DNA of 64,000 nt, from positions 17,023 to 81,022 of the IMG/VR virus record IMGVR_UViG_3300028920_000061. One strand, written 5' to 3'. Under the pieces are notes generated by a model. That model saw nothing but the letters and a program-made list of their open reading frames with translations. It was not told where the DNA came from and ran no database searches. Position numbers and translations under genes: made by a program. Positions 10,338 through 32,900 of this stretch are shown in pieces; position 1 is the first letter of the stretch; each line of letters begins with the position of its first letter. Source of the stretch: a virus.

Positions 10338-10676
10338 ATGACTTACCCACATCCAGGAGTCGATGCCTGGGAAAGCTACAAAGAGGAAAATCCCATGGAA
10401 CTGAAAGTTCTTTTCTTCTGGGCCCCATGGTGCGCCCCATGCAAACTTATGAGTCCAGGATTTGATGATGCCTCAAAAGCAAATCCGAATATAAAATTCG
10501 AAAAAATAAATGTTGATCAGGATGACGCAACTCCAAACAGATATGGGGTATATGTTATCCCGTCAATATGTTTTTGCATCAATGGGCTTCTCTATCATAC
10601 TCATATCGGTATAATGACAGAATCTTCAATAAATGATGAAATTATGAAAATGAAAAAAGAAATCGAAAGTGGATAG
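10338..10676 (+). CDS. Thioredoxin
   Basis: FWAPWCAPCK, KINVD, YGVYVIP. Confidence 0.9.
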   Translation: MTYPHPGVDAWESYKEENPMELKVLFFWAPWCAPCKLMSPGFDDASKANPNIKFEKINVDQDDATPNRYGVYVIPSICFCINGLLYHTHIGIMTESSINDEIMKMKKEIESG

Positions 10677-10697: not shown

Positions 10698-11873
10698 ATG
10701 AGAATCAAAGCAATAATTGGAAGTGGCATGGGTGATGAAGGTAAGGGTCGCATGACCGAATACTTTTCCGACAGCAAATCAATTGTTGTACGATTCAACG
10801 GAGGGGCACAAGCTGGTCATACTGTCGTACTTTCTGACTGGGCGCGTCATGTATTTCATCATTTTGGAAGTGGGAGCCTGCATGGTGCTCAAACATATCT
10901 GAGCAAATTTTTTATTGCCAATCCGATGTTCTTCTGTCGAGAGCGTAGAGAACTTCTGGCGAATTTTCAATGTAATCCTGATGTTTATATCAGTCCGTTT
11001 TGTTTTGTTACGACACCATGGGATATGATCATTAATGATCTAACAAATCAGAAAAACCAACATGGTACCTGTGGATTTGGCATTAACGAGACTGTTGAAC
11101 GATGTCAGAAGATGACATTAAATGTCAGTACGCTTCAGGCGGACTACTTTGACGACCTTCTCATGCACATCGTCAATGACTGGGTTCCGGTAAGAATTGA
11201 AGAGCTTGGGCTTGAGCCCGACGCAACATACCGCAAATGGCTTTCAAGCGAGAAGATGATAGACAATTTCAAAGATGATGTCAAATCATTTCTCAATTGG
11301 GTAACGATAGGAGACCCAAACTTTGACTTTGCCGAACAAGTCATTTTTGAAGGCGCTCAGGGACTCATGCTCGATCAGAATCATGAAAATTTCCCATATG
11401 TTACCAGGTCGAATACGGGAACCGGAAATGTCCGCGAACTGATTGAGGATTTTCATCTTCACGATGAACTGGAAGTGACATACGTTACCCGGTCATATGC
11501 GACCAGGCATGGGGCCGGACCTTTACTTCATGAGGATAAGACTCTCCAATATGGCGACCCAACAAACGTTCCAAACAGGTTTCAGGGAAGTCTACGATAT
11601 GGCCTTCTCGATATAAATCAAATTGTTCATGAAATCAATCAAGATATGGTAAATCTAAACGGCCTGGAGTACAATCCAAGTATTGCAGTCACCTGCCTGG
11701 ACCAAAATCCCGGATATTGTATCTGGGATGGTAAGGAAGAGCGCTTGTCACACAGTGAGCTATGCAAGCACGCTCTTGCGGACAATCTCCAGTTTAGCAA
11801 GGCGTATGGGTCCATTGGCCCCAGAACAACTGATCACATGAAAGTGTGGGAAAGGAAAGGGGTGCCAGTATAA
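10698..11873 (+). CDS. purA: Adenylosuccinate synthetase-like protein (divergent PurA family)
   Basis: GDEGKG, RFNGGAQAGHT, FEGAQGLMLD, FPYVTRS, TRHGAGP; canonical TTGR aspartate loop replaced by TNVPNRFQG. Confidence 0.85.
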   Translation: MRIKAIIGSGMGDEGKGRMTEYFSDSKSIVVRFNGGAQAGHTVVLSDWARHVFHHFGSGSLHGAQTYLSKFFIANPMFFCRERRELLANFQCNPDVYISPFCFVTTPWDMIINDLTNQKNQHGTCGFGINETVERCQKMTLNVSTLQADYFDDLLMHIVNDWVPVRIEELGLEPDATYRKWLSSEKMIDNFKDDVKSFLNWVTIGDPNFDFAEQVIFEGAQGLMLDQNHENFPYVTRSNTGTGNVRELIEDFHLHDELEVTYVTRSYATRHGAGPLLHEDKTLQYGDPTNVPNRFQGSLRYGLLDINQIVHEINQDMVNLNGLEYNPSIAVTCLDQNPGYCIWDGKEERLSHSELCKHALADNLQFSKAYGSIGPRTTDHMKVWERKGVPV

Positions 11874-12820: not shown

Positions 12821-13027
12821 ATGAAAAGAAAAAGAATTGATATACCCAATGACGCGGTTCGGTCACTTGACTGGTTATGTGAAAAATGTGGCGAATCGCG
12901 TCCTGGGTGTATTTTAAGATTAATAGCAATGGGAGTTCGTGAAACAGAACTTTTTCTTCAAAGAAAGAAGTATCAAGAAGTTATCAATCGGTGGGGAGAA
13001 CCTACTCGAAAGATGGTCAAAAAATGA
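12821..13027 (+). CDS. Small basic protein, possibly ribbon-helix-helix
   Basis: MKRKRIDIPNDAVRSLDWL...SRPGCILRLI pattern; last gene before the cassette array. Confidence 0.5.
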   Translation: MKRKRIDIPNDAVRSLDWLCEKCGESRPGCILRLIAMGVRETELFLQRKKYQEVINRWGEPTRKMVKK

Positions 13028-13091
13028 AAGTTTGTAATACAAGGAGTTATGCAAAACTCTAGTCATGCTTTTTATTGATCGGAGGTTGCTT

Positions 13092-13322
13092 GTGTTTCAA
13101 ATAATGTTAGCATCATTCATAACAGGGTTTGTGTGTTTCTTGCTTGGTTGCTGGTATCAGCAACGCAACAGTAACACTAAGGTAGGCACTCCTTCCGCAT
13201 CGCACAACAGGCCAATTATGCAAGTTTGCCCTGTGTGCGGTAGTAGCGTTTCTTTACAACCATCTTTGGGTGCAAATATATACGGCTGTTGCAAGTGCGA
13301 GTGGTACGGCAAACCAGCATAA
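13092..13322 (+). CDS. Cassette 1: membrane anchor plus CxxC...CxxC zinc ribbon
   Basis: GGAGG then GTG 13092; hydrophobic N-terminus; the CPVCG...CCKC tail is encoded inside hairpin 1. Confidence 0.6.
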   Translation: MFQIMLASFITGFVCFLLGCWYQQRNSNTKVGTPSASHNRPIMQVCPVCGSSVSLQPSLGANIYGCCKCEWYGKPA

Positions 13323-13378
13323 GTTGGCCGAACCGTTGTCGGCAATATCTGTTGAACCATAATGTAAAGGAGTGCCTA

Positions 13379-13696
13379 ATGGCAAATTTTCGTAATCAAC
13401 TTACCGACCTTATCAACTGTCACTCGCTAGAGAACGGCAGTGATACTCCAGACTACATCTTGGCAGCATACTTGGATGGTTGCCGCAAAGAATTTGACGC
13501 TGCCGTTAACGCCCGTGCTCGGCACTCCTCAGAACAAGAGGTGTCAACAGAGAAAGCCGACAACAGCGACTATGCGGCGGCGCTTGAAGTGTGGGGCGAG
13601 TTTTTGAACACGTTCGTGATAACAGAAAGCGATAATAAGGTTTTTCCAGAGTGGTGTCGTAAGCGCCTCAATTCGGAGAAACCGAACTGCGCATAA
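13379..13696 (+). CDS. Cassette 2: hypothetical protein
   Basis: AAGGAG RBS; LINCHSLENGSDTPDYILAAYL is a recurrent small-phage-protein pattern. Confidence 0.75.
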   Translation: MANFRNQLTDLINCHSLENGSDTPDYILAAYLDGCRKEFDAAVNARARHSSEQEVSTEKADNSDYAAALEVWGEFLNTFVITESDNKVFPEWCRKRLNSEKPNCA

Positions 13697-13745
13697 TCGC
13701 AAACGTTGTACAAAATTTGTGCGCTTTTGAATTGGAGGTTGCGCC

Positions 13746-13949
13746 GTGAAATATTGTAAGGTTGAATTTATGTGCGATTGGTATCCGAACGATACGAGTA
13801 AATGCCCTCACCGTGTTTTAGATAAGTACCGTGATTGCATTTACGAAAATATTATTGCCGAAAACTATGCTATTTGTGGCAGCGAAGAGGCGCAACGGGA
13901 AGCTATGGAAGCGCACAAACTTCGTACAACAGGCCAAGTGTCGCAATAG
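13746..13949 (+). CDS. Cassette 3: Cys-rich hypothetical protein
   Basis: GGAGG RBS, GTG start. Confidence 0.65.
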   Translation: MKYCKVEFMCDWYPNDTSKCPHRVLDKYRDCIYENIIAENYAICGSEEAQREAMEAHKLRTTGQVSQ

Positions 13950-14020
13950 TCAAAGCACTACTGCGCACGTTGGCCGGAACGTTGCAGGCCATAGGGGCTG
14001 AACCATATTGGAGGTTGGTA

Positions 14021-14302
14021 GTGGTGCAAGTAAAGTGGTTGCAGATATACAAGTGTCGTGACTGTTGGCACCTTGAGCCGAGTTACGGAACTGGTGATAG
14101 GCGTTGCGGATTAACTGGGCGCAAGTGTGAATATGTCCCCGGCGTTGGGTGGTATGAGGATGTGCCGGAATGGTGTCCACTACCAACAGCAGAATCGGAG
14201 TCAGCCCCAACAGGCCAACAACAGTCCGCAGGAACGCCATTGTCGCAGGATTATGGAATAAATAAACGGTTGGAGCGCGAACAACAGCGTCCGTGCGGCT
14301 AA
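14021..14302 (+). CDS. Cassette 4: Cys-rich protein (CxxC...C...PEWCPL)
   Basis: GGAGG RBS; CRDCWH...RRCGLT...VPEWCPLP. Confidence 0.65.
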   Translation: MVQVKWLQIYKCRDCWHLEPSYGTGDRRCGLTGRKCEYVPGVGWYEDVPEWCPLPTAESESAPTGQQQSAGTPLSQDYGINKRLEREQQRPCG

Positions 14303-14348
14303 TCGTTGTAGGTCATAGCTGGTGAACCATATTGTAAAGGCGGTCAAC

Positions 14349-14639
14349 ATGGATTTTGAAAATAGAAAGAAGTTGCGCGAGAAGTACCGAGAAGAAACTG
14401 GATTTATGTGGAAGGTTCCACACCCAAAGTTTCTGCTTGCATCAGAGGGGTATGTCATGTGGCTTGAAGACCGCCTTGAAAAGGCGGAGTCACCAGCAAC
14501 GAACCCACAACAAACGCAGCCTGCCATTGCTCAACTCTGGGAACGGTATTCTGGTATTATGCCTGACGATACTCTGGAGAAACGTGCTTGTATTGCTAAT
14601 TTTGTCAGATATGTTGAGCAACAACAGGCGGGTGCGTAA
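14349..14639 (+). CDS. Cassette 5: hypothetical protein
   Basis: LREKYREETG...YVMWLEDRL; stop lies inside hairpin 5. Confidence 0.65.
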   Translation: MDFENRKKLREKYREETGFMWKVPHPKFLLASEGYVMWLEDRLEKAESPATNPQQTQPAIAQLWERYSGIMPDDTLEKRACIANFVRYVEQQQAGA

Positions 14640-14696
14640 TCAGTTGTGCGCAATCAACTGGCGAGTCTACATTGTAGGCCGCCGAAGGAGGTAAAG

Positions 14697-14900
14697 ATGA
14701 AAGGATTTATCGGTTTGATTATTGTGGTTCAAATTGTAGTGTACATCGGGATGGTGTCACTGGTCGGATGGGGCCTCTGGACTGGCGCAAGATATGTGTC
14801 AAAGCACGGCGTAAAATCAATTGTAGAGGAAATGTGGAACGGGTCGGCGGCAGAAAAAGAGGGTTCGCCAGTTGACAACACACAACAGCCGCAGCACTAA
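14697..14900 (+). CDS. Cassette 6: single-pass membrane protein
   Basis: AAGGAGG RBS; long hydrophobic helix followed by HGVKSIVEEMWNG. Confidence 0.7.
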   Translation: MKGFIGLIIVVQIVVYIGMVSLVGWGLWTGARYVSKHGVKSIVEEMWNGSAAEKEGSPVDNTQQPQH

Positions 14901-14977
14901 ATACTATCGTACTTCGTGCGAGTGCGGCGATACGTTGTGTGTTCGCTTCGCAAATTTTAACCTTTGGAGTATTGTAA

Positions 14978-15250
14978 ATGGAAATACATTGTTGCGGTTG
15001 CGTTGCTGAAGATATTTGTGAGGCTGTTCAGGGCGATAATAGATGTCTTGATTTCCATAAGGCTTTGGAAGCGGTTAAAACGTCACACAACAGCGCTAGT
15101 ACGCAATATTTTCCCGATGAAAAGGAGATGAAACATGCCGCGAGTCAGTGGATTGATTACCTAAGCACTATAGATTCAACATACTCTGACTTAGAGCAAA
15201 CTTTTATACAGGGAGTACGATGGGGTATCGGCCAACTGCCGGGCAAGTAG
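14978..15250 (+). CDS. Cassette 7: hypothetical protein
   Basis: GGAG RBS; Cys-rich N-terminus; more than half of the ORF lies within hairpin 7. Confidence 0.6.
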   Translation: MEIHCCGCVAEDICEAVQGDNRCLDFHKALEAVKTSHNSASTQYFPDEKEMKHAASQWIDYLSTIDSTYSDLEQTFIQGVRWGIGQLPGK

Positions 15251-15296
15251 TGCGAGACGTTTTGTGAATATGCCGATGTAAAATGCAAATGGAGGT

Positions 15297-15617
15297 GTGA
15301 TTAAACATGAAAGCTATAGTATTCGGATCAGAAGGTTGTGTGAAAGTCCAGTCAGCTTTTTAACAATTGGAGGCGGCATGCCACATTTCAGCGAAGAAGA
15401 AACGATTTCGATAATCAAACGTCTGATTGAGTTAGCAGAAATCAAGGAAGGGCGCCTCAAATCTAAGGAGTTGGCTACTTCACCCAACAACCGCTATGCG
15501 ACGGCGCTTGAGGTGTTGAATGAGTATGAAGAGGATGATTCATATTCTCCCAACGAACCGCCGTTTGAGATATGGCTCAAGTTGCGCCTAAATGCCGATG
15601 GCACTTCGCATAGCTAA
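15297..15617 (+). CDS. Cassette 8: hypothetical protein (start may be ATG 15378)
   Basis: GGAGG before both candidate starts; C-terminal tail homologous to cassette 2. Confidence 0.6.
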   Translation: MIKHESYSIRIRRLCESPVSFLTIGGGMPHFSEEETISIIKRLIELAEIKEGRLKSKELATSPNNRYATALEVLNEYEEDDSYSPNEPPFEIWLKLRLNADGTSHS

Positions 15618-15679
15618 ATCGTTATAGTCAATAAATTTGCCTTCTGATAGTATAGTCAGCTGGTAAGAAAGGAATTATT

Positions 15680-15832
15680 ATGCCATTGTATACAGTATCA
15701 GCAGATTGTCCAATCACGGAGTACGAAGCTGATGATGAAATGGGTGCTATCGAACAGTATTCTGAGAATTATCGTGTTAATTACAAGTTTTGTTCAGCAA
15801 CAAAGTGTGATGAACCCGCTGAAGAAGAATAA
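15680..15832 (+). CDS. Cassette 9: 50-aa acidic protein (not in ORF track)
   Basis: AAAGGA RBS; MPLYTVSADCPITEYEADDEMGAIEQ...AEEE*. Confidence 0.6.
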   Translation: MPLYTVSADCPITEYEADDEMGAIEQYSENYRVNYKFCSATKCDEPAEEE

Positions 15833-15937
15833 GGTGGGCAAATTTACAGCAACCAACAACCGTATGGTGTTCGTTTCACGAATGCGGGTATGCACTTCAC
15901 CATACTTTCCCGTTATAGGCTGTTTGAGGAGGCTTTT

Positions 15938-16204
15938 ATGGATATAGCAAATTTGACCCGATACACTATTGATTATGTTCCAGACTCTTGTGATGGTGAT
16001 TATGTTCAGCATAATGTAAGCAAGGATGGCGAGTATGTCAAATTTGAGGAAGCTATGGAAGCCTCCTCAAACAGCCTACAACAGCTAAAGGCTGAAATTT
16101 TAGCACTACGCAAAGATGGTGTAGTTGCAGACGATATGTATTGGATTGGTTGGAACATGGCCCTTGAACGTACTGCTGGTATGCTAAAACAATCAGCCGT
16201 TTAG
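15938..16204 (+). CDS. Cassette 10: hypothetical protein
   Basis: GAGGAGG RBS; LTRY...DGEYVKFEEA pattern. Confidence 0.7.
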   Translation: MDIANLTRYTIDYVPDSCDGDYVQHNVSKDGEYVKFEEAMEASSNSLQQLKAEILALRKDGVVADDMYWIGWNMALERTAGMLKQSAV

Positions 16205-16250
16205 CAAACATTGTCGGTAATCGGTTGTCAAATTATAGAAGGGCGGCAAA

Positions 16251-16562
16251 ATGAAGTTGAAAATGCACTCGTTTGATTTTGGTGAAAACACTCTGACATT
16301 TAGTATTCCCGCTGCTACTATGGAGTCCCATGCTTGGGGTAATGTCCCTGATGGTGTAGATGTAGACCTGTCCAAGGTGACTAATGACGTTGCCCTTGGG
16401 ACTAATGGAACAACCGACTCCGCTGGCGCTACCGACAACATCGCAAGGGACGAAATATTGCGCTGTATCACGTACATAGATAATTATTTATCGGCTGGCA
16501 ATATTGAATCGGCTCGCAAATGGTGCAACGAAGTACGCGCAATACTATCGCCCGTTGCGTAA
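16251..16562 (+). CDS. Cassette 11: hypothetical protein
   Basis: ORF ends within hairpin 11. Confidence 0.6.
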   Translation: MKLKMHSFDFGENTLTFSIPAATMESHAWGNVPDGVDVDLSKVTNDVALGTNGTTDSAGATDNIARDEILRCITYIDNYLSAGNIESARKWCNEVRAILSPVA

Positions 16563-16599
16563 CCGTTGCACGCCAGTTTTGATTTTGGAGATTTGTATT

Positions 16600-16782
16600 A
16601 TGTCAATATTGCCTAAACGTTGCAAATGTGGCAGATGGTCGTGGAGTATTCGGCGTAGAAGATTAAACACAGCCTACGTTGACGAGGAAAGAAATTATAT
16701 GTACTCGTGTCGCGAGTGCTATGAAGAGGCTTACGAATACTACGCCGAACGATGGGCGGATTATTATGCTAATTGCATGTAG
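16600..16782 (+). CDS. Cassette 12: small Cys-containing protein
   Basis: GGAG RBS; CKCG...RRRLNTAYVDEERNY..SCRECYE...YYAERWADYY. Confidence 0.7.
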   Translation: MSILPKRCKCGRWSWSIRRRRLNTAYVDEERNYMYSCRECYEEAYEYYAERWADYYANCM

Positions 16783-16823
16783 GAAGTGCAAAACCAGCAT
16801 GCAACAACAGCCGGAGGTAAAAA

Positions 16824-17066
16824 ATGCAAGAACAAAGAGAAAAAGCCCATTCGATATTACGCAAGGCATTCGATGAGGCTGGAATAGCAGATGGGTTTTA
16901 TTGTGGTGTTTTAATGGATGGAACTGATGTATCCGCGTACAGTGTCGGACGTGAGAATAAGGCAGAGTATTCTAACGTAGAGCGGTATCAACGCCTTCTC
17001 GGTGTTGTTGAATCGTGCAAATACTCATTATTGGTCAAAGCTCACGAAAAGCAGGAAAAATCATGA
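16824..17066 (+). CDS. Hypothetical protein
   Basis: GGAGG RBS. Confidence 0.6.
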   Translation: MQEQREKAHSILRKAFDEAGIADGFYCGVLMDGTDVSAYSVGRENKAEYSNVERYQRLLGVVESCKYSLLVKAHEKQEKS

Positions 17067-17175
17067 AAGGTTTTGTCACCCCACAACAATGATGTTATTT
17101 TTTTTCACTTTGTGGAATAGTAATAATATACAGATCTTTTGAAATATCATATATTCTACAACAAAGGAGGAATTC

Positions 17176-17937
17176 ATGGCAAAGGTCCATGAAATTGTTG
17201 CTGTCGAGAAAGACGTGAAGGGCACATTCAATAAGATGCTGGGTGAAACTCGCATGACATTCCTGAAGGGTGAGCATTTCGATGAGCACCTGAAAGAATA
17301 CCAGCCGCTCAATGCTGACGATCGTGAACAGCTCGATGCCGAACACAAGCCCATGGCTGACACTGTCCCCAGCAAGTTGTCATATTTCATGGGGCATATG
17401 AAGAGAATGTTCGACTTGGTGATACAGAAAGAAGTATCCAATCTGGACGCCAAAGCTGATGTCACTGTTCAAACAGACAGTGGTGATGAAGTTGTTTTGT
17501 ACGAACAGGCTCCGGTTGCGGCTATTGTTCAGCTTACCAATCTGATGGAAAGCGTTCGGATTCAGGTTCTTTTGAATATCCCCACGCTTGATCCGGCAAG
17601 ATCCTGGGCATCCGACGGAAATCGTCAGGACGTGTTTGTCACCCCCGAAGTCAGACGCGCCAGAACCAAGAAGGTGCAGGTCCCTATCGAATTGTCGCCG
17701 GCTACAGACAGACACCCGGCGCAGGTTCAGCTTGTCACGGAAGATGTGACTACCGGCCACTGGGTGCAGAAGTACTGGTCCGGTAAGATATCTTCGGCTG
17801 ACAAGTCAATGATTCTGAAACGAACCGACGCCCTCATAGCAGGCCTCAAAAGAGCCAAGTCGAGGGCTAATGAGAGTGAGGCGAAGAAGGTTGCCATAGG
17901 CGATCGCTGCGCCAAATGGATTTTGACAGGAGAATAA
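17176..17937 (+). CDS. Conserved helical hypothetical protein upstream of a structured RNA
   Basis: Strong AAGGAGG RBS and own promoter motif (17094). K-x-HEI-x-AVEK, Y-x-P...D-x-EQL, IPTLDP, RTKKV...AT-D-RHPAQV are motifs of a widespread uncharacterised family (recognised from memory, not searched). Confidence 0.85.
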   Translation: MAKVHEIVAVEKDVKGTFNKMLGETRMTFLKGEHFDEHLKEYQPLNADDREQLDAEHKPMADTVPSKLSYFMGHMKRMFDLVIQKEVSNLDAKADVTVQTDSGDEVVLYEQAPVAAIVQLTNLMESVRIQVLLNIPTLDPARSWASDGNRQDVFVTPEVRRARTKKVQVPIELSPATDRHPAQVQLVTEDVTTGHWVQKYWSGKISSADKSMILKRTDALIAGLKRAKSRANESEAKKVAIGDRCAKWILTGE

Positions 17938-22074: not shown

Positions 22075-22683
22075 TCACGTTATTGCTCTCTTTAATAGAT
22101 AGGACCCATTAATAAACTCTATAATATCTTTTTGCAAAAGTGAAACAATTAATTTTTCTATGGAATGATGCCCTTTTATATGATCGCTTTCATTTTTATA
22201 TAACCAAAGATTTTCAATGTTATTATTTTCTTTATTCAAATCAATGTGATGCACTGTCTCATTTGAACTTAATTGTCTTCCAATTTTTTGTTCAATTAAA
22301 TATCGATGTATGTATATTCTTCTTCCTTTTGACGTTACCAGTTGTGGTCGCCATTTTTTAAATTTATTAGAACTTTTTTTTCGACCTTTCTTTTTTTTAC
22401 CCCTATTAAATTCAATACCACATTCAAAAGAACAAAATTTCTTTTTTTTCCATTTTTCAATTTGAAAAATCACCCTACACTGTGGGCATTTTCTCGATTC
22501 ATAAAATACGTGCCTAGGTTTTAACCCACATTTTATAGAACAAAATTTTTGCTTATTCCATTTTTGAGTAAAAAATGTTTTTTTACAACTTGGACAAACC
22601 CTTTGATCGTTTTTATACGATCCATATTTTGCTACAGATTCTTTTGTTGGCATAACATCATCCTCCTTGACAACATTATACAT
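22075..22683 (-). CDS. HNH homing endonuclease with two N-terminal Cys repeats
   Basis: CPxCxxxF...KFCSxxC twice; YIHRYL...GRQL...ETVHHIDLNKENNNIENL; markedly AT-rich compared with neighbours. Confidence 0.9.
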   Translation of the reverse strand: MYNVVKEDDVMPTKESVAKYGSYKNDQRVCPSCKKTFFTQKWNKQKFCSIKCGLKPRHVFYESRKCPQCRVIFQIEKWKKKKFCSFECGIEFNRGKKKKGRKKSSNKFKKWRPQLVTSKGRRIYIHRYLIEQKIGRQLSSNETVHHIDLNKENNNIENLWLYKNESDHIKGHHSIEKLIVSLLQKDIIEFINGSYLLKRAIT

Positions 22684-22967: not shown

Positions 22968-23263
22968 TTTTTTTCCTTCCCGAGCTTCTTCTTAGCCCAT
23001 TCATTAAATGTTTCGAGCGACCGCTCGATGACGGTTGTGACTTTCAGCACCTTCGGTAGGTATGCATGAATTACCCCTCCGCTCCAGATAACAGTGCCGA
23101 CACCGAACAGGATATTCAGAAGGTCGTCATCGATCTCAAAATCGGTTCCGGCCTGAGCGTTTGATATCCTGATGACGTACTTCACGATCATGGGGATCAT
23201 GACGATGAGTGCGCCGAGGCCACGTTTCTTGCCGGTGCTTTTGGTCAATGATTTGAAATTCAT
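22964..23263 (-). CDS. Holin-like membrane protein
   Basis: Two hydrophobic helices and basic termini; GGAGG RBS. Confidence 0.55.
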   Translation of the reverse strand: MNFKSLTKSTGKKRGLGALIVMIPMIVKYVIRISNAQAGTDFEIDDDLLNILFGVGTVIWSGGVIHAYLPKVLKVTTVIERSLETFNEWAKKKLGKEKK

Positions 23264-23928
23264 ATTACCTCCCCAAGGGCAGCCCTCTCAGCTGCACCTA
23301 ATGCTGAAACAGTACCCAAAGGGTCCTTACCGAAAGCGTCGGCGAACTTCTTCCCAAGTGACTTGGCGACCTTCTCCAGCGTCTCAGGCGTTCGTGAGGC
23401 CCTCGTAAGGTCATACTGGGTCTTATCACCCGCCAGCTTCACCGCGTCGTATTCCGGGTTTGTATAGCCACCAAACACAGCCATGTACGGGTCAGGGATG
23501 AGAGTATCATAATGATGTTCCAGATTTGCCAGCTTATCAAACTCCTGAACAGCGCTGAGGACCTCAAGAGGGGAAAGATCTGACGCCTGCTTTACGAGGG
23601 CTTCAACAACGCCAGTTCCTTCAACCTGCTTGCCACCAACATTTACTTTCACTTTATGGGTAAGACAGGCCTGTTTACGCATTTCCATAGAACGCCTGAA
23701 ATCGGGCGAAATTGGAGACCCCTCTTTCAAAGGGCGTGAATAGTTGGTTACCCAGTCTTCCGACAAGGCAACGCCGAGGTCGGCAGCACGTTTCTCGATA
23801 TTACACGCCGCGGTTACACGGTCGTTAGGGGAGAACCGATGCAGGTTCTTCTTGAAATAGACACAGGCCGTCTTGACCTGACGGTCTGTTTCGATTGGAT
23901 ACCTGTTTTTCAGTGCGTAATGCATCAT
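23260..23928 (-). CDS. Hypothetical head-associated protein
   Basis: YAL..RYPI.T..QVKTA..YF; several K-x-A motifs. Confidence 0.7.
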   Translation of the reverse strand: MMHYALKNRYPIETDRQVKTACVYFKKNLHRFSPNDRVTAACNIEKRAADLGVALSEDWVTNYSRPLKEGSPISPDFRRSMEMRKQACLTHKVKVNVGGKQVEGTGVVEALVKQASDLSPLEVLSAVQEFDKLANLEHHYDTLIPDPYMAVFGGYTNPEYDAVKLAGDKTQYDLTRASRTPETLEKVAKSLGKKFADAFGKDPLGTVSALGAAERAALGEVI

Positions 23929-23936
23929 AACTCCCT

Positions 23937-24959
23937 TTAATAGTCTGTTATTGTTGATATAGTCAAATAACGATCGTTATTATTTGAAGCTGGAATTGTC
24001 TGATTATTTCCTGAATTTTGATAAATATTCAATTTAACATAATCGCCGGCTGATAGATATACAAGAGCACTACCAATAGATTCTCTCTCTATAACACCCT
24101 CAGCATTGTTTGCAAAACCTCTATATGACCCCTTAAAACAATAATTGGAATCAATATTGTCATTGATACATATGTACGTTTTACAAAATTCTTGAACTGC
24201 CCAATTTGAAGAGTCTTGCAAAGAAATTTTCCATGATATCTGACGAAAACCATTTGTTCTTGCAGTATAATAATTCGGGGTCCCGTCGCTCCATTCTTCA
24301 GCAGTATCTTGAAGAACTGTTCCAAATGATAGATGAAAATCGTTGCCAGAAGTTATCGTTAGCTCGCTTCCGCCAACAACAATAACTTGCCCTCTAGATG
24401 CGCCACTTCTTGTTATTCCTGTAATTGATCCACTCGCCATTGTTATTGTGGCAATATGAACCAAATCATGATCTGCTTGTATTTGTGATATTGATGATTT
24501 TACTTCAAGAATGTTGCTATTAACTGGTGATGATGCGAATCCAAGTTCATCAAAAACTATTTGCTCATTTGCTGCCCCAATAAGCGGTGTAAACTTTCCA
24601 TATGAAAGTGTATTATCAACAGATGATAAACTATATCTTAGACACAAATAATTGTCAGCATCGTCAGTCAGATCGCCACTTAAATCCTTTTCAAGTGAGC
24701 TTTCAAGCGATATAATTCCACCATTTAGGGTAACGGCATATCCAGACGCAACAGTAACAACCAATCCGGAATTTGTAACTGTAAGTCCTGATAGAATTTT
24801 ACCTATACTTGATCCTGAATTGAGCGCTTTGGCAATCCTTTCAAAATTACTGAGCATTGCTGATTGAATAGACCACGCGGTCAGGTCACCGTCAGTTCCC
24901 TGACCGAGTATTTCATTAATCCTTTGCTTAATTCCAGTAACGATATTGACACGTCTCAT
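23937..24959 (-). CDS. Tail-fibre-like protein with C-terminal C1q/TNF-like head
   Basis: SGLTVT...VTVASGYAV N-terminal attachment motif; YTARTNG...LVYLSAGDYVKLNIYQNSG. Confidence 0.65.
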   Translation of the reverse strand: MRRVNIVTGIKQRINEILGQGTDGDLTAWSIQSAMLSNFERIAKALNSGSSIGKILSGLTVTNSGLVVTVASGYAVTLNGGIISLESSLEKDLSGDLTDDADNYLCLRYSLSSVDNTLSYGKFTPLIGAANEQIVFDELGFASSPVNSNILEVKSSISQIQADHDLVHIATITMASGSITGITRSGASRGQVIVVGGSELTITSGNDFHLSFGTVLQDTAEEWSDGTPNYYTARTNGFRQISWKISLQDSSNWAVQEFCKTYICINDNIDSNYCFKGSYRGFANNAEGVIERESIGSALVYLSAGDYVKLNIYQNSGNNQTIPASNNNDRYLTISTITDY

Positions 24960-25345
24960 TTTACCAACCCTTGAGGTGGCGTGATAATTGTCGATTTAGG
25001 AGCTGTTGCGCCAGCCATGTCGGCTGGTGCATTTTCAGGAACCTGAAACTGTTTCGGTTCGAACTTACTGGCAAACTCATCAATCTGTTCCGGGGTCATT
25101 TTTTCCCCAATAAGTTCAAAAAGCATTTTTGCTCCGCCAAGCTTCTGACCAAGCTCAGCATCGAGAGCTTCCATTTGTGCCTTTATGGACTGAATTTGTT
25201 TGACAATATCCATTCCCTCGGAATTAATTTTGATGAGCTTTTCAAGCTCTTTTTGAGTTCCATCAGGAGCGAGTTCTGGATTCTTTGAAAGAAAAGCTAC
25301 GGCCGCTGAGGCCTTCTGCTCACGAGAAGCGTTCGAAATGTCCAT
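24956..25345 (-). CDS. Coiled-coil hypothetical protein
   Basis: Coupled ORF. Confidence 0.7.
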   Translation of the reverse strand: MDISNASREQKASAAVAFLSKNPELAPDGTQKELEKLIKINSEGMDIVKQIQSIKAQMEALDAELGQKLGGAKMLFELIGEKMTPEQIDEFASKFEPKQFQVPENAPADMAGATAPKSTIITPPQGLVK

Positions 25346-26436
25346 TAAATATACCTTCCACTATAGTTATACAATTCAGTTCCAACAGTTTGCTGATACA
25401 AATTCTCAGCAACAGTAAAGTAATCACTCACCGTTGATGACAATGATGCCATCCCCTGGAATATGCCATGATACGCTCTGATTTTTAGAACATCAGTTCC
25501 AGCAACAGGAGCTGTACCACTCGTAAATCTTGAACTATTCCATTTTTCAAGAGCGATATTATACGCGCTTCCTGAAATAGTTTTTGATAGAACGATACCA
25601 TAACATGTCACGTCTGGAGTGTCGTCAAAAACGACTTTAAGAATGTCTCCAATCCCAACATTGTTGTATATCGTTAAATAATCAGCAACACTCGCGTCCC
25701 CGGTAATTGTGAACGTATAAGCGTTGCTTGATTGCATTTCAACTTCGTCAGTAGAAAACTCGTCGCCCTCTTTTGAGATCAAAAATGGATTGTTTGTTGT
25801 GATCGAAAAATAATCGAGAGGTACGACGAGTTTTGAATCTGACTTGAACCGTATGCCGGGAACACCGGCCCATTTAATTCTTCGGTACGCTGTCTGCGAA
25901 GCGGTAAGAGGTTGGTAATATTCTATATCAAAACGTGGAATTGTGATTCTAGCATTGGCTGAAAATCCAAAAAATTGAGATAACTCATACAAGTCACTGT
26001 CGTCATCATGCAGACTCGATAACAATTTATTATAGATTGGAAATGAGCTACCAAGAAGGTCAACACTCATGCTCTCCGGCTCTATCTGAAGAAAATACTT
26101 GTATTTCTGCAGACGCTCTTCTTCAACAAGGGTAGAAAAAGGAGTAATATCAGAATCAAAATAGTTGTATGCATCAGCCTTGAATGCTGGAATTGATACA
26201 CGGTCAGGCGTATGAATAATTCTTGAAGTGACAATGCCTGACTCTATTATATCGTAGGTTCCATTTGGTAGTGGGGAACTGACAAAATATCCTTGATCGT
26301 CAGATGATACAGAGTCAACAGTAACTGACCCGGAAGGGTCGTTTCTGGCTATTGAAATTGTAGTATTACGAATGACATTACCGGCACTGTCGGTAATAAA
26401 TCCTTGTATCGGGCTGGATCGAAGATTTGATATCAT
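25345..26436 (-). CDS. Virion protein with N-terminal carboxypeptidase-regulatory-like (prealbumin-fold) domain
   Basis: IQGFITDSAGNVI...SDDQGYF....LPNGTYDI. Confidence 0.65.
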   Translation of the reverse strand: MISNLRSSPIQGFITDSAGNVIRNTTISIARNDPSGSVTVDSVSSDDQGYFVSSPLPNGTYDIIESGIVTSRIIHTPDRVSIPAFKADAYNYFDSDITPFSTLVEEERLQKYKYFLQIEPESMSVDLLGSSFPIYNKLLSSLHDDDSDLYELSQFFGFSANARITIPRFDIEYYQPLTASQTAYRRIKWAGVPGIRFKSDSKLVVPLDYFSITTNNPFLISKEGDEFSTDEVEMQSSNAYTFTITGDASVADYLTIYNNVGIGDILKVVFDDTPDVTCYGIVLSKTISGSAYNIALEKWNSSRFTSGTAPVAGTDVLKIRAYHGIFQGMASLSSTVSDYFTVAENLYQQTVGTELYNYSGRYI

Positions 26437-26440
26437 AATA

Positions 26441-29400
26441 TCATCTGGAAAGGAGTGAAAAATAGCTCAAACCGAACCTGCGTATATATTCTACAATGTC
26501 GATCTTAGACCAGTCAAGGCCGTCATCCCAGTCTCCTGAAGGGGGCGTTATCGGATTCCACCATGGCATATTTGTATAATCATTTACTACACCGGTAACC
26601 CTACTATCAATATACTGCATGGTATCCGATCCGGTCCCAAAATTCCCATAGGAAACCGGGTAGGTTCTCGCCTTTAAAGGTCTTATTCGAATATATATTT
26701 TGCTGTTTTCATCCACATATCTATCAAAATCGCTATCGTCACCCCTTGATCCAAAATCCATGTGTCTTGTTTTAAAAAGCGTATCCACAGCTGAAGATGA
26801 AAACTGTGTTTCACAGCTCTTAAACTCAAAATCAGTTTTCTTATTCAATTTCGAATAGGGCTTATGAAGGGAAACGGGCCCTTCCCAGTCATATATATTT
26901 GCTGGTATGCCAGAGCCGTCAGTGATATTGTATGAGGCGCTTGGTGTTGTGAAATACACCTTTAAGCGTGTATTGTTCGGGTAGACGGTGTCCTGCTCCA
27001 CATAGGCAACATGATACATTCTTCCAGTTTCACTGTCATACATGACGAGGTTTGATTTTTCATCAACTTCAGCTGCCTCTTCGTCTGTTAATCCATAATC
27101 AATTGCTGAAGAGTCGTATTTTTCCAATATGACAAAATAAAGATTATTATGCACTAAAACTTTTGAAACTGCTGCATGAAGTCCTGAGACAAGGGTTTTA
27201 GCAGTGTATTTCTTATTGTCATACAGAGTCATTGAAAACGGTCGCCACATTGCCCTTGTTGAACCATTGACTGGGTAAGCAGTATCCCATACTTCAATTA
27301 TCACATCCGACAGAGATTCTTCAGTTGGTTTGTACCTGGTCCCATCCGTATAATCTTCATTGCTTGTTGCGGGTGGCCAGTATGCGGTATGACAAAACGC
27401 TGACACTTTTGAATAAATCCATCGTTTAATATCAGGAATCCCAGCATATTCATCCTGCTTTCGTCCTGTTGTACTTGACAACTCAGCAGTATCAAGCTCA
27501 AGCACATAAGATGGATACTCACGGTTGATATACGAACTGAATTTATTGTCTCCATATTTCCAGACGCGATTATCAACATTCCAAACCATTTTCATATCGG
27601 CTGGATTATGTGAAAAAAGCGAATCATCAATATCAATATCAAACGTACCAAATGTTGGATAAGTCTGTCTTGGTTTTGTCATTGATATGAAAATGGATGT
27701 CTCATCAACTCGATAATAACATAGATGCGCAGGATATATCAGACGATTAGCCGGTCGTGACACCATTTGTGTCAGATGACCGCCGGCGGATTCTGGGTCG
27801 CTTTCAATGGTGTCCTCAGTTGGTGAATCCATTCCTTTGAAATAATCTATTCGACAAAATGCGTCATCACCTTCAGGGGCATACCTGGCGTTGTAGGAAT
27901 CATAATGATTGTTGGAATCCAACGCCCATGATCCGGCGTTAATATAGGATGATTTTTTGAATATTTGAGTTTTCTTGAATTCAGACTGCCCTGCTACTCT
28001 GACCTGATATGAGCCGGCGCAAAATGGAAATTCCACTTCATACATTATTTCTTCACGGCCATCACTTAGCAATACCGGTTCGATATATGGGTCCCTTCTA
28101 ATGATTTTAACATACCCATGTATTCCAGGTATTCTCAGCATTGGTCTGAAAAGTTCATAATTGTCTATTTGGTGAATCCATTGAGGCATTGTTATGAGGG
28201 AGTCGCTTACAGTATCAGGACCGCCGGGTACATAATTAGTACAATAGAGTTTCGCATACACAGACGCTGAGCCCATTCCATTTTTTTTAGAATAATGACC
28301 GGCACCACAAATTCTAATCTTTTGGTCGGTGTAATAGCTTTCTATATCAGCAACTTCAGGACTGGCTGCTGAATTAGTATAAAAACTAAAACGTTTTACT
28401 CCTGTATCACCAACAAGTCCGCCAAGTAAATCATCAAGGGCATATTCTTCTCTTTTGAAATAGTCATTTAAAGAGGCTCCCTTGAAAGTATCATATGCCT
28501 CCGTGTCTTCACCTTCCATTTTCATTTCTGGGCCGTTCAAATGAAGAACATGAAGAATATCAGTATTATATTCTTCTCTATCAAGTTCACGGTCAAGTTC
28601 ACGAATATATGCTCTTGGCGCACGTATTTTAACACATGCTGTCCAAGCTTTTGGCCAACTAAAACTTATGTCACCCCCATCAGCTCCAACGATTTTGTAA
28701 TCTATCGCCTGTCCGTTCGCAAGGGGTCTCACTTTCATGTACGGCTCTGTTGTAACGATAGAGGAATACCGGCGATTTCGTTCTGTCTGTACATCTATAC
28801 CGCGTATGAAATTTGAACTATCATACATTTCCTGACCAATCACATAATTTCCACCGCCTTCATCGTATACGTTATTGCGAGAAATATGAAAGGCTATTTG
28901 TGACTGATCATCCTCTTCATATGATAAGCCTGGAGCATGAAAAAATGATTTTCCTTCTGGGGTAACAGGCCCCGAATGTGCCAATTTTTGTTTTTCAATA
29001 ACATTTTTCTGAGACAATTGAGGCAATAGGCGCGTAGTTAATAGTGCAATAGTTGCTTCCTGAAATTGGCCATCAACTTTATCGTCTCCATCGTAAACTT
29101 GATTATAGAAAAGTGGCAATCCGATATACGGATGGCACGTCCATGGTTCTTCCGATTTGAAATCATACGGATAGTGAATAAATTCTACTATTCCGCCATC
29201 GCAAAAACCCCAGTTGATGTCAGTTGGTACAACTTTATAATCAAGTAGTCTTGTAGTGTGTGCGATATCTGCATTAGCTACAAGGGCCTGTGCGGCACTC
29301 GTACAGTCCGCGTTGTATGTCCCCATTACCACAGAGAAACTGTAATCCTTCAGGGTTAATGGGCTGAATGATCGGTGTGCCCATATATAAAGGTCATAAC

Positions 29401-29905: not shown

Positions 29906-32900
29906 AGGTTGAAAATTGGCCCTCCGCCAAATTTGACATTCTTAATCGGATTCTTTGCCCCGGAGATACAAAGGGTCACAGCCTCATTCAAAAGAAGCTG
30001 AAGCTTATTCTCCTGTTCATTAAAATAGAGTGAATACCTGTCATCATCAAGCATTCTACCAAGAATGAATGGGGATTCGCTGTTTATCTTTGTTGCAATA
30101 ATTGTCATTGATTCCGCATCATAATACGCAGTAAATTCTTCCACTACTTTTCTAACCTTATCGGTTTTCAAAAGAATAGAAGGTTCAGCCTTTAATTGAA
30201 TTGCGATTTTCTGTTCACGTATGAACTCTTCAAGCTCATCCTGATTGTATTGAAATCTTGCATACAAATCTTCATACACTGTATCATTTTTCAGACAAAT
30301 AAGACGCTTATTTTCTCGATCAAGGTCAATTCGTATTTGATCAACAGACCGCACATCAGATGATTCAAGATCAAAAATGTGAATAGCCAGCTCATAAGGG
30401 CCTATATCAATAAATCCACCCCTGAATTGCCTATCGCTTCCTTCTATATCAGTCGTCATTGAATACAAGGTAACGGCAGAATCGTTTCCAGTATTGGCAA
30501 CAATACTTGTAAGAAGTGGCTTGAGGTTTGATTGAGTCATAACTGTTGATGGAGCTGAAAAACTTTCAATTTCTGTGAACTCAGGATCTTCGTTTTCTTG
30601 AGGATTAACAACTCTCGAAGACGTTATACCTATATCAAAGTCACCAGATCCGATATTGTATGTTAAACCATTGTACATGTAATCATCAAGAGAGCCTGTG
30701 CATGTTTTAAATGTGAGAGTGCTTGACTCGTCACAAATGAATATCGAATTGTAATTTTTGTGACCTGTCAGTGTGGTTTTGGCCAAATACATCGTTGATA
30801 AAGAACCGTCATTAAAATATAAAACTATCGAATTCACGATTTCGATATTGGTATCAGAATTGACAAGTGTATCATTGTTTACCTGAACGATGCAATTGAT
30901 TAAAATGATTTTTGACGTAAGTGCAGAGTGCGATTCGTTCAGACTGTAATTTCCACTTGAGTCAACACTGTAAATTTTTATGTTTTCAAAAGTCAAACTG
31001 CCTTGTTTGCTGTCATCATCGAAAAGGCCATCTGAATTATACCGTATTGATGCCGGGCCCTCAGCCGCCTCGTTTGGATCAGTCATCACCTTAACGGTTC
31101 TATCTTCACGATTGTCAAATTCGAACATTCCTTCAAATGTCTTATTGGCTTCTACATATATGAGTATGTTATCAATTGTGTTTGTTGCCAGATATGCATT
31201 AAGAGTTGTTATAGTGTGAAACTGATAAATGGTTGAAACGCTGTCATAAAAATTATCTCTTAAATAAAGAGTTTGCGTTGGAAATTCGTCAGTTGCTATT
31301 CCAAATTGATTTGATATACTGACGGGGCCTATTTGCAGGGACCCTGTTCCTATTAACTGACTTTGTTCTATGGCACCCCTATCCCATTGCTCCTCTTCAC
31401 GATCTACACCGCGGCAGTCTTCAAAGAAATAATATGGTGAGGTTTCTCGGAGATCATAAGCTGAATTGATTGCGACAGAATCTACATCCAAGTCAGGGGT
31501 GTAATCTTCAGTTAATCGGTCAATGAATTTTATATATTGCTTGTTGATATTTCCATTATTAGTTCCGGCAGTCACGTCTCGGCTGATGTTGTACAACAAA
31601 AGGAATTTGCCGGTATTCTCAGGATGATCTTCTATGAAATCTCCAGCAACATTGTCTTGACATATGTTATTGTACATCTGCACAATAGTAGAAAGTCCAG
31701 AACTTTTAATTTGATAAATTCCATAATAGCAATTGACAATTGTGTTATTCATCACCCAAACATAATTGGTATAACCGCCTTCCATTGAGATGCCGCCTAT
31801 GCATCTGCTTAGAATATTATTGACGATTACATAGATTATACCATTGACCATTCCATCGTCGCAATCACAATGAATGGCTTTGGCGCCACATTCATGAATT
31901 ATGTTTGAATCAATTAAGAACCCTTTTGAATATTGTATGTATATACCGCCACCGTTTGCATTACTATTTTCAAGAATAATTCCAGAAATTTCAATATACC
32001 TTGCATTATTAACATTAATGGCATAGCCTAAATCGTTCAAAAGAACTTCGGATCCAGAGCTGGGGTTCCCTTTGTGCCTGTGAGGCACATTGCAGTGTTT
32101 TGTAATATCAATTGGTGAGAATATGCGTATGAAATAATCAACATCGCATGTGTACCCGGAAATCGTACATGCACTTGAAACAAGACCGACGCTGTCATCT
32201 GAAACAACAATATTGACCTGTACTTCAGCAGAAGTTAAATCACTTCCTACAATTGTTTCAATCCCACCGGAAAATGCACTTGGAAGATTACTGAATTTTC
32301 TCTTTATAATAGTAATCAGATGTTCACCAGAAACAGCATCATCACCATTTTCATCAGATATATACCAGTTTAAACTGTCAATTTTTTCTCCAAGATATCC
32401 AATAACAGTGGAGACGCCCGTTATAACCACATCACCTGATGCAATTTTATCGTTTGTTTGAGGGGTCCCAAACGTAATGATGGAACCGATTACGGTGGCC
32501 TTTGCGGCAGATGCTGTGTGATAATTCTGTGTAATATCTCCAACAGAAAAGAACACTTTTTTTGCTTGATACTCAAGGGCACCCATGTCCCAGAATCTGC
32601 CACGGGCATTTCCAACGGCGTCTGTATCAAAAGGATATGTGGTATCACCGTTAAGCTGTGTGCCAACCCCTCGAGGAGAGTCTTTTGTTAGATTATAATT
32701 TCTGTTTGGAACATCTTCAAATTCCGCTGTAGTTGAATCAAGATCCCCAGTTCCGCCACCGGTACTCGCATCTTCAGCCATACAGTATCTCGTATTGGGA
32801 ACGCCACCATAACATCCTGAAGGGCAATTCTGAACAATATTATTTGTCAAGTTGCACAATACTGTAGAGTATATCCCCACATCGCAATCGTCTATGGTGT

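Follow-up and report, generated by a model that had tools for sequence, protein, structure and literature searches.

Why do the small genes of a sediment phage run on into the hairpins that separate them, and do the residues encoded there matter to the proteins? The window, a stretch of 64,000 nucleotides from an uncultured marine-sediment phage, carries 12 small open reading frames (ORFs) in a row between 13.0 and 16.8 kb, spaced by attC-like hairpins. A sequence-only reading of this DNA had suggested that the sites may be portable donors of protein domains. We consider it likely that the region is a phage-borne integron-like cassette array, whose sites double as code for a portable C-terminal module. 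The features are given below in window coordinates, which are used throughout, and all lie on the plus strand. T1 denotes the tail type of cassettes 2 and 8, and T2 that of cassette 10.

13046..13048, + strand: array start and first GTT crossover point, without an upstream hairpin
13065..13322, + strand: ORF1, 85 aa; membrane-like head, then a four-Cys tail of ~38 aa encoded within site 1
13204..13339, + strand: site 1, an ACAAC...GTTGT hairpin of 136 nt; duplex -40.3
13335..13564, + strand: terminal inverted repeat of cassette 2, with arms at 13335-13385 and 13500-13564; duplex -55.5; z -5.0 and -4.8 for the two strands
13379..13696, + strand: ORF2, 105 aa; a widespread phage N-domain of ~50 aa, then a T1-type tail
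13560..13709, + strand: site 2, 150 nt; codes for the T1 tail of 44 aa; stop 13694-13696
13746..13949, + strand: ORF3, 67 aa; 6-aa tail, ending at a stop in the site 3 loop
13926..13985, + strand: site 3, 60 nt
14021..14302, + strand: ORF4, 93 aa; 26-aa tail; site 4 = 14218-14309
14349..14639, + strand: ORF5, 96 aa; tail of ~43 aa; site 5 = 14507-14647
14697..14900, + strand: ORF6, 67 aa; 4-aa tail; site 6 = 14882-14938
14978..15250, + strand: ORF7, 90 aa; 53-aa tail; site 7 = 15087 to ~15263, its 3' core weak
15378..15617, + strand: ORF8, 79 aa; head unrelated to that of ORF2, T1-type tail
15487..15625, + strand: site 8, 139 nt; codes for the T1 tail of 42 aa; z -3.8 for each strand
15680..15832, + strand: ORF of cassette 9, ending ahead of its site
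15856..15916, + strand: site 9, 61 nt, untranslated
15912..16082, + strand: cassette-10 terminal inverted repeat, the strongest of the array; arms 15912-15971 and 16024-16082; duplex -63.3; z -8.1 and -9.8; 46 nt at 80%
15938..16204, + strand: ORF10, 88 aa; head and T2-type tail (40 aa); site 10 = 16078-16228
16251..16562, + strand: ORF11, 103 aa; 41-aa tail; site 11 = 16435-16569
16600..16782, + strand: ORF12, whose stop precedes the final ACAAC core
16600..16808, + strand: array end, with the last ACAAC core and no clear 3' core after it
ACAAC cores, + strand: 13204, 13560, 13926, 14218, 14507, 14882, 15087, 15487, 15856, 16078, 16435, 16804
GTT-type cores, + strand: 13335, 13705, 13981, 14305, 14643, 14934, 15259 (weak), 15621, 15912, 16224, 16565

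The hairpins stand out from their surroundings. ACAAC is denser at 12-18 kb (6, 9 and 6 per 2-kb bin) than in the other bins (0-5), cognate core pairs bind far more strongly than non-cognate ones, and folding z-scores in the array reach -8 to -10. Across the 81-kb contig, the eight best inverted repeats with a separation below 400 nt include four GTT...AAC pairs of the array region. By z-score both strands fold about equally well, and neither these scores nor the counts of G-T versus A-C mismatches (56 vs 34 and 24 vs 22) settle which strand folds. Position 14621 was dropped as core 5 for 14507, the preceding-core pairing energy being -43.1 for 14507 and -23.2 for 14621; the hairpin energy of site 5 from 14507 is -42.5. 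The single Rfam match was sub-threshold and was taken as chance.

In the explanation that we propose, a cassette would extend from one GTT to the next and be closed by an imperfect hairpin site. Such a site would open with the ACAAC core and, after what is mostly a single unpaired base, the first strand of a paired box. An interior varying from 20 to more than 150 nt would separate this from the second strand of the box, and an unpaired spacer, as a rule of 4-5 bases, would lead to the closing GTT core. The first 20-45 nt of the cassette would be complementary to the 20-45 nt directly 5' of its own ACAAC. In an excised circular cassette these arms would extend the hairpin stem and place the crossover mid-way in a long one. 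The complementarity itself was seen in 30 of 68 cassettes, which match at no fewer than 18 of 22 positions, compared with 0.7% of non-cognate pairs.

These terminal repeats invite a reading at the level of mRNA, in which the 5' leader pairs with the stretch ahead of the next ACAAC and controls translation, the tails being incidental. Ribosome-binding sites (RBS) and start codons do lie within the left arms; the arms of cassette 2 enclose the RBS, the start codon and the head of ORF2, and the ORF2 RBS has a 12/12 complement at 13183-13194. However, the same repeats also flank cassettes of 1.0-1.4 kb, the two strands fold about equally well, and the exchange of modules at cores requires a process at the level of DNA. 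We therefore regard control of translation as a very improbable account of the array.

The architecture recurs beyond the window, a search with a single site pattern having brought up 48 metagenome contigs that have it. Rule-based hairpin detectors gave an excess of false matches or misses, and an nhmmer model of the junction was used instead; it recovered 149 junctions in 44 sequences, none of which had matches on both strands. The sites in this set are 23-230 nt long, with the hairpin, the second box and the variable interior present, and 68 of 106 have spacers of 1 and 4-5 bases, with the 5' core of relatives assigned automatically and roughly. Each stem-loop is followed by a conserved A/T-rich hexamer ~18 nt further on and by an RBS. 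Three loci, L186 and L197 (NrdD context) together with L221 (DDE transposase), are probably chance or unrelated matches to the pattern. The cargo of the arrays includes Dam, MT-A70, two C5 methylases and DUF5662, and is typical of phage accessory regions.

Comparison of contigs shows that recombination at GTT brings about the gain, loss and reordering of cassettes. Two contigs, L190 and G001, are 99-100% identical and differ in that one cassette has moved and one C5-methylase cassette is absent; their three junctions share 7, 7 and 7 nt, and GTT is what all three have in common. One contig of run X1, which comes from the same sample as the window, is without cassette 1; 13045 is joined there to 13335 (289 nt skipped) across three shared letters, at a depth similar to that of the cassette-bearing form. 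The crossover is thereby resolved to the 3-nt GTT rather than to an exact bond. Interiors vary as well, a contig of run X1 keeping the arms of site 2 around another interior (joint 13582 to 13686) and a contig of run X2 doing the same for site 8 (joint 15514 to 15601). Two further X1 joints, 13048 to 15923 and 15085 to 16078, were set aside as too weak, with a depth of 2 and 22 letters on the shorter side. The sites are also points at which assemblies break.

Could the array instead consist of terminator/promoter motifs like the PeSLs of the hyperplastic regions of T4-type phages, around which genes are shuffled by homologous recombination? The setting fits, in that small ORFan-like genes of a phage are accompanied by stem-loops with hexamer and RBS behind them, and recombination at PeSLs is described as yielding indels and mini-circles (PMC2839356; PMC4122927). 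In a weak scan for the sigma-70 consensus, though, only 2 of 11 GTT cores were promoter-like, and no hairpin was terminator-like. In phi1/RB49, as described, the upstream stop precedes the PeSL (PMC2839356), whereas here ORFs overlap the hairpins. Moreover, unrelated hairpins are joined with only 3-7 nt in common, centred on GTT, which argues against homologous exchange, and cassette-specific terminal repeats are foreign to PeSLs. We consider this account improbable.

The array region had no blastn match in 50,697 phage records, and no close relative was found among viral contigs by way of the adenylosuccinate-synthetase-like and DUF7873 genes. A 16-nt site pattern hit 91 loci in viral contigs, approximately the chance expectation by a rough estimate, with L131 the only real one, and a 21-nt exact site string returned L131 alone. 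This phage contig (L131/G001) carries a 59-nt copy of site 3 at 98.3% identity and is otherwise unrelated. The head domain of ORF2 was inspected at 80 viral loci, at none of which the GTT/AAC terminal-repeat pattern was seen, and the head thus exists independently of the array. No large protein is common to the array-bearing contigs.

How far, then, are the hairpins read? Translation of the sites, and with it the tails of what are predicted proteins, is inferred from the ORFs. ORFs 1-8, 10 and 11 cross the AAC and have their sole in-frame stop inside the site, with tails of about 38, 44, 6, 26, 43, 4, 53, 42, 40 and 41 aa, respectively, and the ORFs at 15680-15832 and 16600-16782 stop ahead of the core. 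Among the ten that read through, AAC falls in frame 0 in five, frame 1 in four and frame 2 in one. The sequence-only reading had claimed as much, namely that 10 of 12 ORFs end inside the hairpin with ~5-50 site-encoded residues (here 4-53) and that AAC occurs in all three frames, and both statements hold; the paired cysteines that it saw in the product of hairpin 1 are likewise present, as two Cys pairs in the translated tail of ORF1.

The same habit is found in relatives, where 64 of 83 assignable ORFs end in sites (39 of 122 ORFs were left unassigned), and the stops are grouped at fixed distances from GTT. Most cassette ORFs carry no stop of their own and are supplied with one by the site, either in its loop or as a TAA in the 3' spacer. 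Stops in several frames are indeed carried by site loops and by the first bases of the next cassette. The majority of tails in relatives are short (2-20 aa, median 15), and these are probably by-products, that is, tolerated read-through. One site type keeps to a single frame in 9 of 11 cassettes, and L204 reads a site type in a second one. Where homologous sites are read in the same frame, unrelated proteins would receive one C-terminal peptide.

Such sharing is evident within the window itself. The tails of ORF2 and ORF8 are identical at 15 of 47 positions by BLASTP (E 8e-4 for that single comparison), the DNA at 13561-13601 and 15485-15525 is 78% identical, and the N-terminal parts of the two proteins do not align to each other, as had been proposed from the letters alone. 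Matches of ORF2 to PHROGs are confined to aa 4-52, and its homologues span the head only. A word-based search with the ORF2 tail recovered nothing but the query, a blank that we attribute to its sensitivity, since an exhaustive T1 profile search of 1.84 billion proteins gave 225 cluster representatives at E <= 1e-3. Among the best 150 of these 225, which share less than 50% mutual identity, 127 terminate exactly where the profile terminates, and 147 heads fall into 125 unrelated BLASTP clusters; the database proteins are automatic gene calls, and their site structure is assumed from the four members with DNA known. Among members whose DNA was compared, T1 sits on four unrelated heads.

The pattern extends to other tail types. 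T2 is found on nine further proteins at 83-88% identity, and the invariant columns of their alignment all lie within the tail. Among 132 distinct cassette ORFs there are 65 significant pairwise similarities, of which 41 involve the tail only, and a single site type is attached to at least nine different cargo genes, all with the same terminal peptide. Tails are thus not fixed to one N-terminus. ORF1, for its part, has a relative at 32% identity over its full length, tail included, in locus L182. The tail family itself had no match in Pfam and PHROGs matched the ORF2 head alone; the best match among PDB sequences, a beta-galactosidase at E 0.0097, was taken as chance, and named Atlas clusters scored 0.78 or less, which indicates no family.

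In the long sites 1, 2, 7, 8, 10 and 11 the ORF frame stays open for 38-53 codons (38 in site 1), with 0-6 stops in the other frames; the combined shuffle P for these six, site 5 having been left out of the test, is ~1.4e-7. Columns 16 and 33 of the T1 profile hold an aromatic residue in 97-100% of cases, Y, W and F replacing one another, and column 12 holds V, I or L. The open frames and aromatic swaps point to selection on the protein. The paired arms tell of another constraint, conservation at codon positions 1/2/3 being.78/.76/.89 for T1 (4 distinct sequences) and.82/.93/.83 for T2 (8 distinct sequences). Third positions are on a par with the first two there, and part of the likeness of tails is therefore at the level of DNA. 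The T2 interior is essentially unalignable between most members.

These arms lend weight to a rival account, in which ORFs merely run into recombination or regulatory hairpins, the tails have no function and their likeness is that of conserved site DNA. The three frames of AAC, the prevalence of short tails in relatives, the multi-frame stops of loops and cassette starts, and the second frame in L204 also speak for it. It does not, however, anticipate six long interiors that are open in the ORF frame alone, nor conservative swaps at aromatic and hydrophobic positions of T1, which go beyond base pairing, together with so many tails ending at the same residue, nor the shared frame of nine cassettes out of eleven. 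As a complete explanation we find it rather unlikely. The idea that the sites are portable domain donors instead draws support from the tails on unrelated heads and from the coding constraint.

Returning to the reading of an array with coding sites, the long-interior sites (T1 of cassettes 2 and 8, T2 of cassette 10) would encode a peptide of ~40-45 aa, kept open and always C-terminal, and the T1/T2 tail is probably a real protein module, putatively a helical hairpin. As the DNA that encodes this module is also the recombination site, a gene that takes up the site in frame would take up the module. It is tempting to speculate, tentatively, that a captured gene thereby gains a common C-terminal handle that links a large and rapidly renewed set of small effector heads to one machinery, e.g. 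packaging into the virion for injection, a protease or adaptor, or a host target in common.

The significance of the array lies in one site family supplying the last 40-45 residues of more than 100 small phage proteins that are unrelated in the remainder. Should the tail be functional, gene capture would be coupled to protein tagging, and this would explain how phages could trial many new small proteins against hosts while one delivery or docking route stays. Were the handle true, the system would amount to a tagging vector of natural origin, in which a mobile-DNA site shapes proteins by a new route. For annotation, shared tails create false "homology" among unrelated ORFans. The system also offers a testable case of DNA under double constraint, from hairpin pairing and from protein sequence.

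Conserved handles on diverse phage proteins have a parallel in the internal proteins of T-even phages, which are described as sharing a capsid targeting sequence (PMC3012670, citing Repoila et al. 1994). In that account, too, very diverse small phage proteins have one short conserved peptide as a handle, but it is N-terminal, ~10 aa long, known in function and outside any hairpin recombination site. The parallel is an analogy of logic only, and implies no targeting by the tails. PeSLs offer a likeness of another kind, as stem-loop motifs reported to bracket small genes in the plastic regions of T4-type phages, to act as points of exchange and to give circular excision products (PMC2839356; PMC4122927). 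Like the array, they are repeated stem-loops around small accessory genes. As described in the same papers, however, a PeSL is an intergenic terminator/promoter that follows the upstream stop and recombines by homology, and PeSLs are without the AAC/GTT cores, the cassette-specific terminal repeats and the translated hairpin, all three of which the array has.

The closest likeness is to integrons and CALINs, and Qi et al. (2023, Front Microbiol; PMC9892861) report 17 CALINs in phages, with IntI1 active on 5 of 6 phage attC sites tested; their phage-CALIN tables may contain relatives of the array. The array shares with these systems a one-directional row of mostly single-gene cassettes with no adjoining integrase, imperfectly paired hairpins with AAC and GTT as inverse cores and interiors of highly variable length, a crossover at GTT (in the L190/G001 junctions and the X1 joint), and one site family on many unrelated genes, with methyltransferase cargo. 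Might the sites then be genuine attC sites, in an ordinary CALIN served by a host integron integrase, as reported for other phages? The cores, hairpin, crossover and methylase cargo speak for this, as does the activity of IntI1 on phage sites. A search for the tyrosine recombinase PF00589, positive in 14 of 14 control genomes, found none on the window's contig (45% complete by CheckV) or on G001 (64% complete), both incomplete, and a complete integron, with an IntI-type recombinase and attI adjoining the array, was not recognised.

The sites themselves also depart from the attC consensus, about three quarters of them differing at a single position. Position +4 after G is T in 73% of 146 distinct junctions, where GTTRRRY leads one to expect R, and position -2 before AAC is A in 74% of 58 sites, where RYYYAAC has Y. 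The unpaired spacers of attC are about 5 and 5-6 nt long, in contrast to the asymmetric 1 and 4-5 nt of the array, and integron cassettes differ from those of the phage, in which cassette-specific terminal repeats of 20-45 nt extend the stem beyond the crossover and an RBS and conserved hexamer follow each site. The sites are attC-like and non-canonical, near to the consensus but not a strict fit, and it is unlikely that they are ordinary attC sites. Cassette ORFs are known to terminate often within attC, and integron-type sites are treated as non-coding DNA signals. No paper on a conserved site-encoded domain was found in the literature searched and, as far as these searches show, what is new here is a conserved module encoded by a recombination site. 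The main difference from attC is that the long interiors of the phage sites are kept as a reading frame for a conserved C-terminal module.

From 13.0 to 16.8 kb, the window carries 12 small plus-strand ORFs with alternating ACAAC and GTT-type cores, each cassette running from one GTT to the next and ending in a hairpin site that lies between its ACAAC and GTT cores. As the sequence-only reading had claimed, most of these ORFs (10 of 12) cross the AAC, with their sole in-frame stop inside the next hairpin, and the AAC falls in all three frames (frame 0 in five ORFs, frame 1 in four, and frame 2 in one). The predicted site-encoded C-terminal peptides, hereafter tails, range from 4 to 53 aa (~38, 44, 6, 26, 43, 4, 53, 42, 40, and 41 aa), and the two other ORFs terminate upstream of the core. 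The value of ~43 aa for ORF5 applies with core 5 set at 14507 rather than at 14621, where the tail would be 4 aa; the former position was chosen for its far better pairing on both sides. The homology proposed between the tails of cassettes 2 and 8 was also recovered (E 8e-4; 78% DNA identity over 41 nt), and their N-terminal parts, or heads, gave no alignment. For hairpin 1, described as encoding a CxxC...CxxC ribbon, the ORF1 tail does contain two Cys pairs, and in a relative at locus L182 this tail is conserved together with its head.

Sites predicted to be translated are the norm across this family of elements. A site-pattern search detected the same architecture in one viral contig, the otherwise unrelated phage contig G001, and in 48 metagenome contigs. 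A junction model built from these relatives detected 149 junctions in 44 sequences, none of which had matches on both strands. The consensus, drawn from 146 distinct junctions, has a dominant spacer geometry of one unpaired base after AAC and 4–5 before GTT. Among 83 assignable cassette ORFs of the relatives, the stop lies within the site in 64, precedes it in 18, and follows it in 1; a further 39 were excluded from this census as lacking a reliable 5′ core. ORF and core assignments were automatic, and taking the longest ORF picked the wrong frame in some cases (e.g., in L182). Tails in the relatives measure 2–71 aa (median 15), core frames 0, 1, and 2 occur in 29, 20, and 15 ORFs, and the stops cluster 3 nt before GTT (spacer TAA), at 8–9 nt, and at 27–34 nt, in the loop. 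Cassette cargo includes Dam, MT-A70, two C5 methylases, and DUF5662.

The tails are not bound to one N-terminus. Among 132 distinct cassette ORFs, 65 pairwise similarities were significant, of which 41 were confined to the tail, 5 were full-length, 2 involved only the head, and 17 were of other kinds. Four unrelated heads in the contigs compared here bear the tail type of cassettes 2 and 8 (T1), and a profile derived from the four tails matched 225 proteins at E ≤ 1e-3 (18 at E ≤ 1e-10) among 1.84 billion cluster representatives. Within the best 150 of these 225 matches, all proteins but one (453 aa) are small, the C-terminus coincides exactly with the profile end in 127, and the heads span 9–97 aa (median 41); BLASTP clustering of the 147 heads that reach 20 aa yields 125 groups, of which the largest has six members. 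The head of ORF2 is itself a widespread phage domain of ~50 aa, usually found as a free-standing protein of 64–72 aa without the T1 tail. The tail type of cassette 10 (T2) is carried by at least five mutually unrelated heads among the loci compared and by nine further database proteins, at 83–88% identity across all 43 aa, and the invariant columns in the alignment of the database proteins all lie within the tail.

Are these tails under coding constraint, or are they simply what results when a frame runs into a hairpin? Long sites 1, 2, 7, 8, 10, and 11 are open for 38–53 codons in the ORF frame only, with shuffle probabilities of 0.03–0.12 per site and a product of 1.4e-7 over the six sites covered, long site 5 having been left out. 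In addition, T1 has 11 strongly conserved columns (N3, Y6, A9, L10, E15, aromatic 16, F30, aromatic 33, R37, L38, and N39), and the interchange of Y, W, and F at columns 16 and 33 is unexplained by base pairing. The tails of the long sites thus appear to be more than read-through. On the other side, third codon positions in the paired arms are conserved as much as first and second positions, T2 interiors are mostly unalignable, and short tails occur in any frame. Weighing these observations together, we regard the long tails as probably dual-use sequence, and short tails as likely by-products. The suggestion that the sites act as portable protein-domain donors is supported for the long site families.

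The sites are also structured as DNA. For the hairpins that stretch between an ACAAC and the GTT after it, cognate duplex energies lie around −20 to −40, and a second set of pairings, between the sequence 3′ of each GTT and that 5′ of the next ACAAC, is stronger, and thus each cassette has its own terminal inverted repeat. Energies of this second set reach −42 to −63 in 5 of 11 cassettes (2, 3, 4, 6, and 10) and −43 in cassette 5 with its core at 14507, compared with −10 to −25 for non-cognate pairs. Folding z-scores fall as low as −8 to −10 on both strands, and four of the eight best close inverted repeats of the whole contig are of this cassette-terminal kind. A local mRNA fold could be proposed as the reason for such pairing. 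However, terminal repeats are a general feature, with at least 18 of 22 positions matching in 30 of 68 cassettes versus 0.7% of non-cognate pairs, and they also occur in cassettes of 1.0–1.4 kb; they are therefore a property of the DNA. In an excised circle, the full site would consist of 3′ arm, hairpin, and 5′ arm, and the crossover would sit midway in its long stem.

Several cassettes encode a Pro/Ser/Ala/Thr-rich linker just 5′ of the ACAAC core, and the same stretch is complementary to a Shine-Dalgarno region; that at 13183–13194 complements the ribosome-binding site of ORF2 (13367–13378) at 12 of 12 positions, and another lies at 13521–13530. In many database proteins, the T1 tail likewise comes after a linker of this kind. 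A cassette-like unit in G001 (L131 7496–7668; G001 about 30436–30608), which has a strong terminal inverted repeat and is followed by a site, has a longest ORF of at most ~12 codons and may be an empty or RNA-only cassette.

Comparison of near-identical arrays indicates that cassettes move, with the crossover at GTT. Locus L190 and G001 are 99–100% identical, yet a 355-nt cassette is relocated in L190 and a 1.5-kb C5-methylase cassette is absent from it; only 7 nt are in common at each of the three junctions, and GTT is the part that recurs in every one of them. Cassette 1 is missing from one contig of the window's own sample, where 13045 is joined to 13335; the joint shares three letters, and the depth resembles that of the form that retains the cassette. 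Pieces from a second sample end at 13209, 13334, and 14304, all of which are cores. Site 3 (59 nt) is 98.3% identical to a copy in G001; outside this copy, the window's contig and G001 have neither DNA nor any ORF of 40 aa or more in common. One combination of 5′ arm, 3′ arm, and 73-nt hairpin recurs on at least nine different cargo genes.

No tyrosine recombinase was detected on the window's contig or G001, both of which are incomplete, and no large protein common to the array-bearing contigs was found. The hairpins matched no Rfam family. The G001 array begins at a GTT without a preceding hairpin, and a few kb upstream of it (G001 23179–26897; L173 6179–9897) lie a YqaJ-type exonuclease and an SbcC-like AAA_23 ATPase.

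The window covers bases 17023–81022 of an IMG/VR record of 81,022 nt, which is of the linear class, with an estimated completeness of 45% (CheckV). The portal proteins of large Vibrio and Salmonella phages are only ~30% identical to its own. Genes for replication and accessory functions occupy the plus strand up to ~18.7 kb, beyond which virion genes lie on the minus strand. Features near the array and beyond it include:

10338–10676, ORF judged by eye to be thioredoxin-like
10698–11873, 3′ of the former, 391-aa ORF, adenylosuccinate synthetase-like by eye and possibly a PurZ-type enzyme for a modified base
17176–17937, directly 3′ of the array, 253-aa protein matching DUF7873 (E 1.3e-61)
22075–22683, minus strand, 202-aa HNH_3 endonuclease amid virion genes

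Upstream of the window, the contig (G000 1–17100, locus L222) encodes a radical SAM protein, an MCM-like protein of 1175 aa, an RNase_T and PD-(D/E)XK fusion, an SNF2 helicase, an RRM protein, and a protein with a "recombination directionality factor-like" (Gp3-like) domain. A nucleotide comparison with 50,697 phage records gave no match for the array region, which is present in public runs only in two marine-sediment metagenomes, one of them the probable source. For window positions 12900–17100, public assemblies of the source sample consist of short contigs that break at cassette boundaries (13032, 13364, 13703, 14748, 15971, and 16184), and long contigs therefore probably undercount such arrays.

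In integrons, cassette ORFs often end inside attC, the cassette recombination site, and chromosomal integrons have homogeneous site families. Our full-text literature searches found no description of a conserved site-encoded tail. Integrase-free attC clusters carried by phages are on record; their cargo includes methylases, and IntI1 recombined such sites in an assay (Qi et al., 2023; PMC9892861). The window's array is a variant of these. Compared with such clusters, its core flanks are one position off, its spacers are asymmetric, and its cassettes have long, specific terminal repeats, the chief difference being the conserved site-encoded tails. The promoter-early stem-loops (PeSLs) of T4-type phages, as outlined in PMC2839356 and PMC4122927, are a looser analogue, and a sigma-70 promoter and terminator scan gave no support for a PeSL-type unit. 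The internal proteins of T-even phages, which by the account in PMC3012670 have the capsid targeting sequence alone in common, offer an analogy for one handle on diverse heads.
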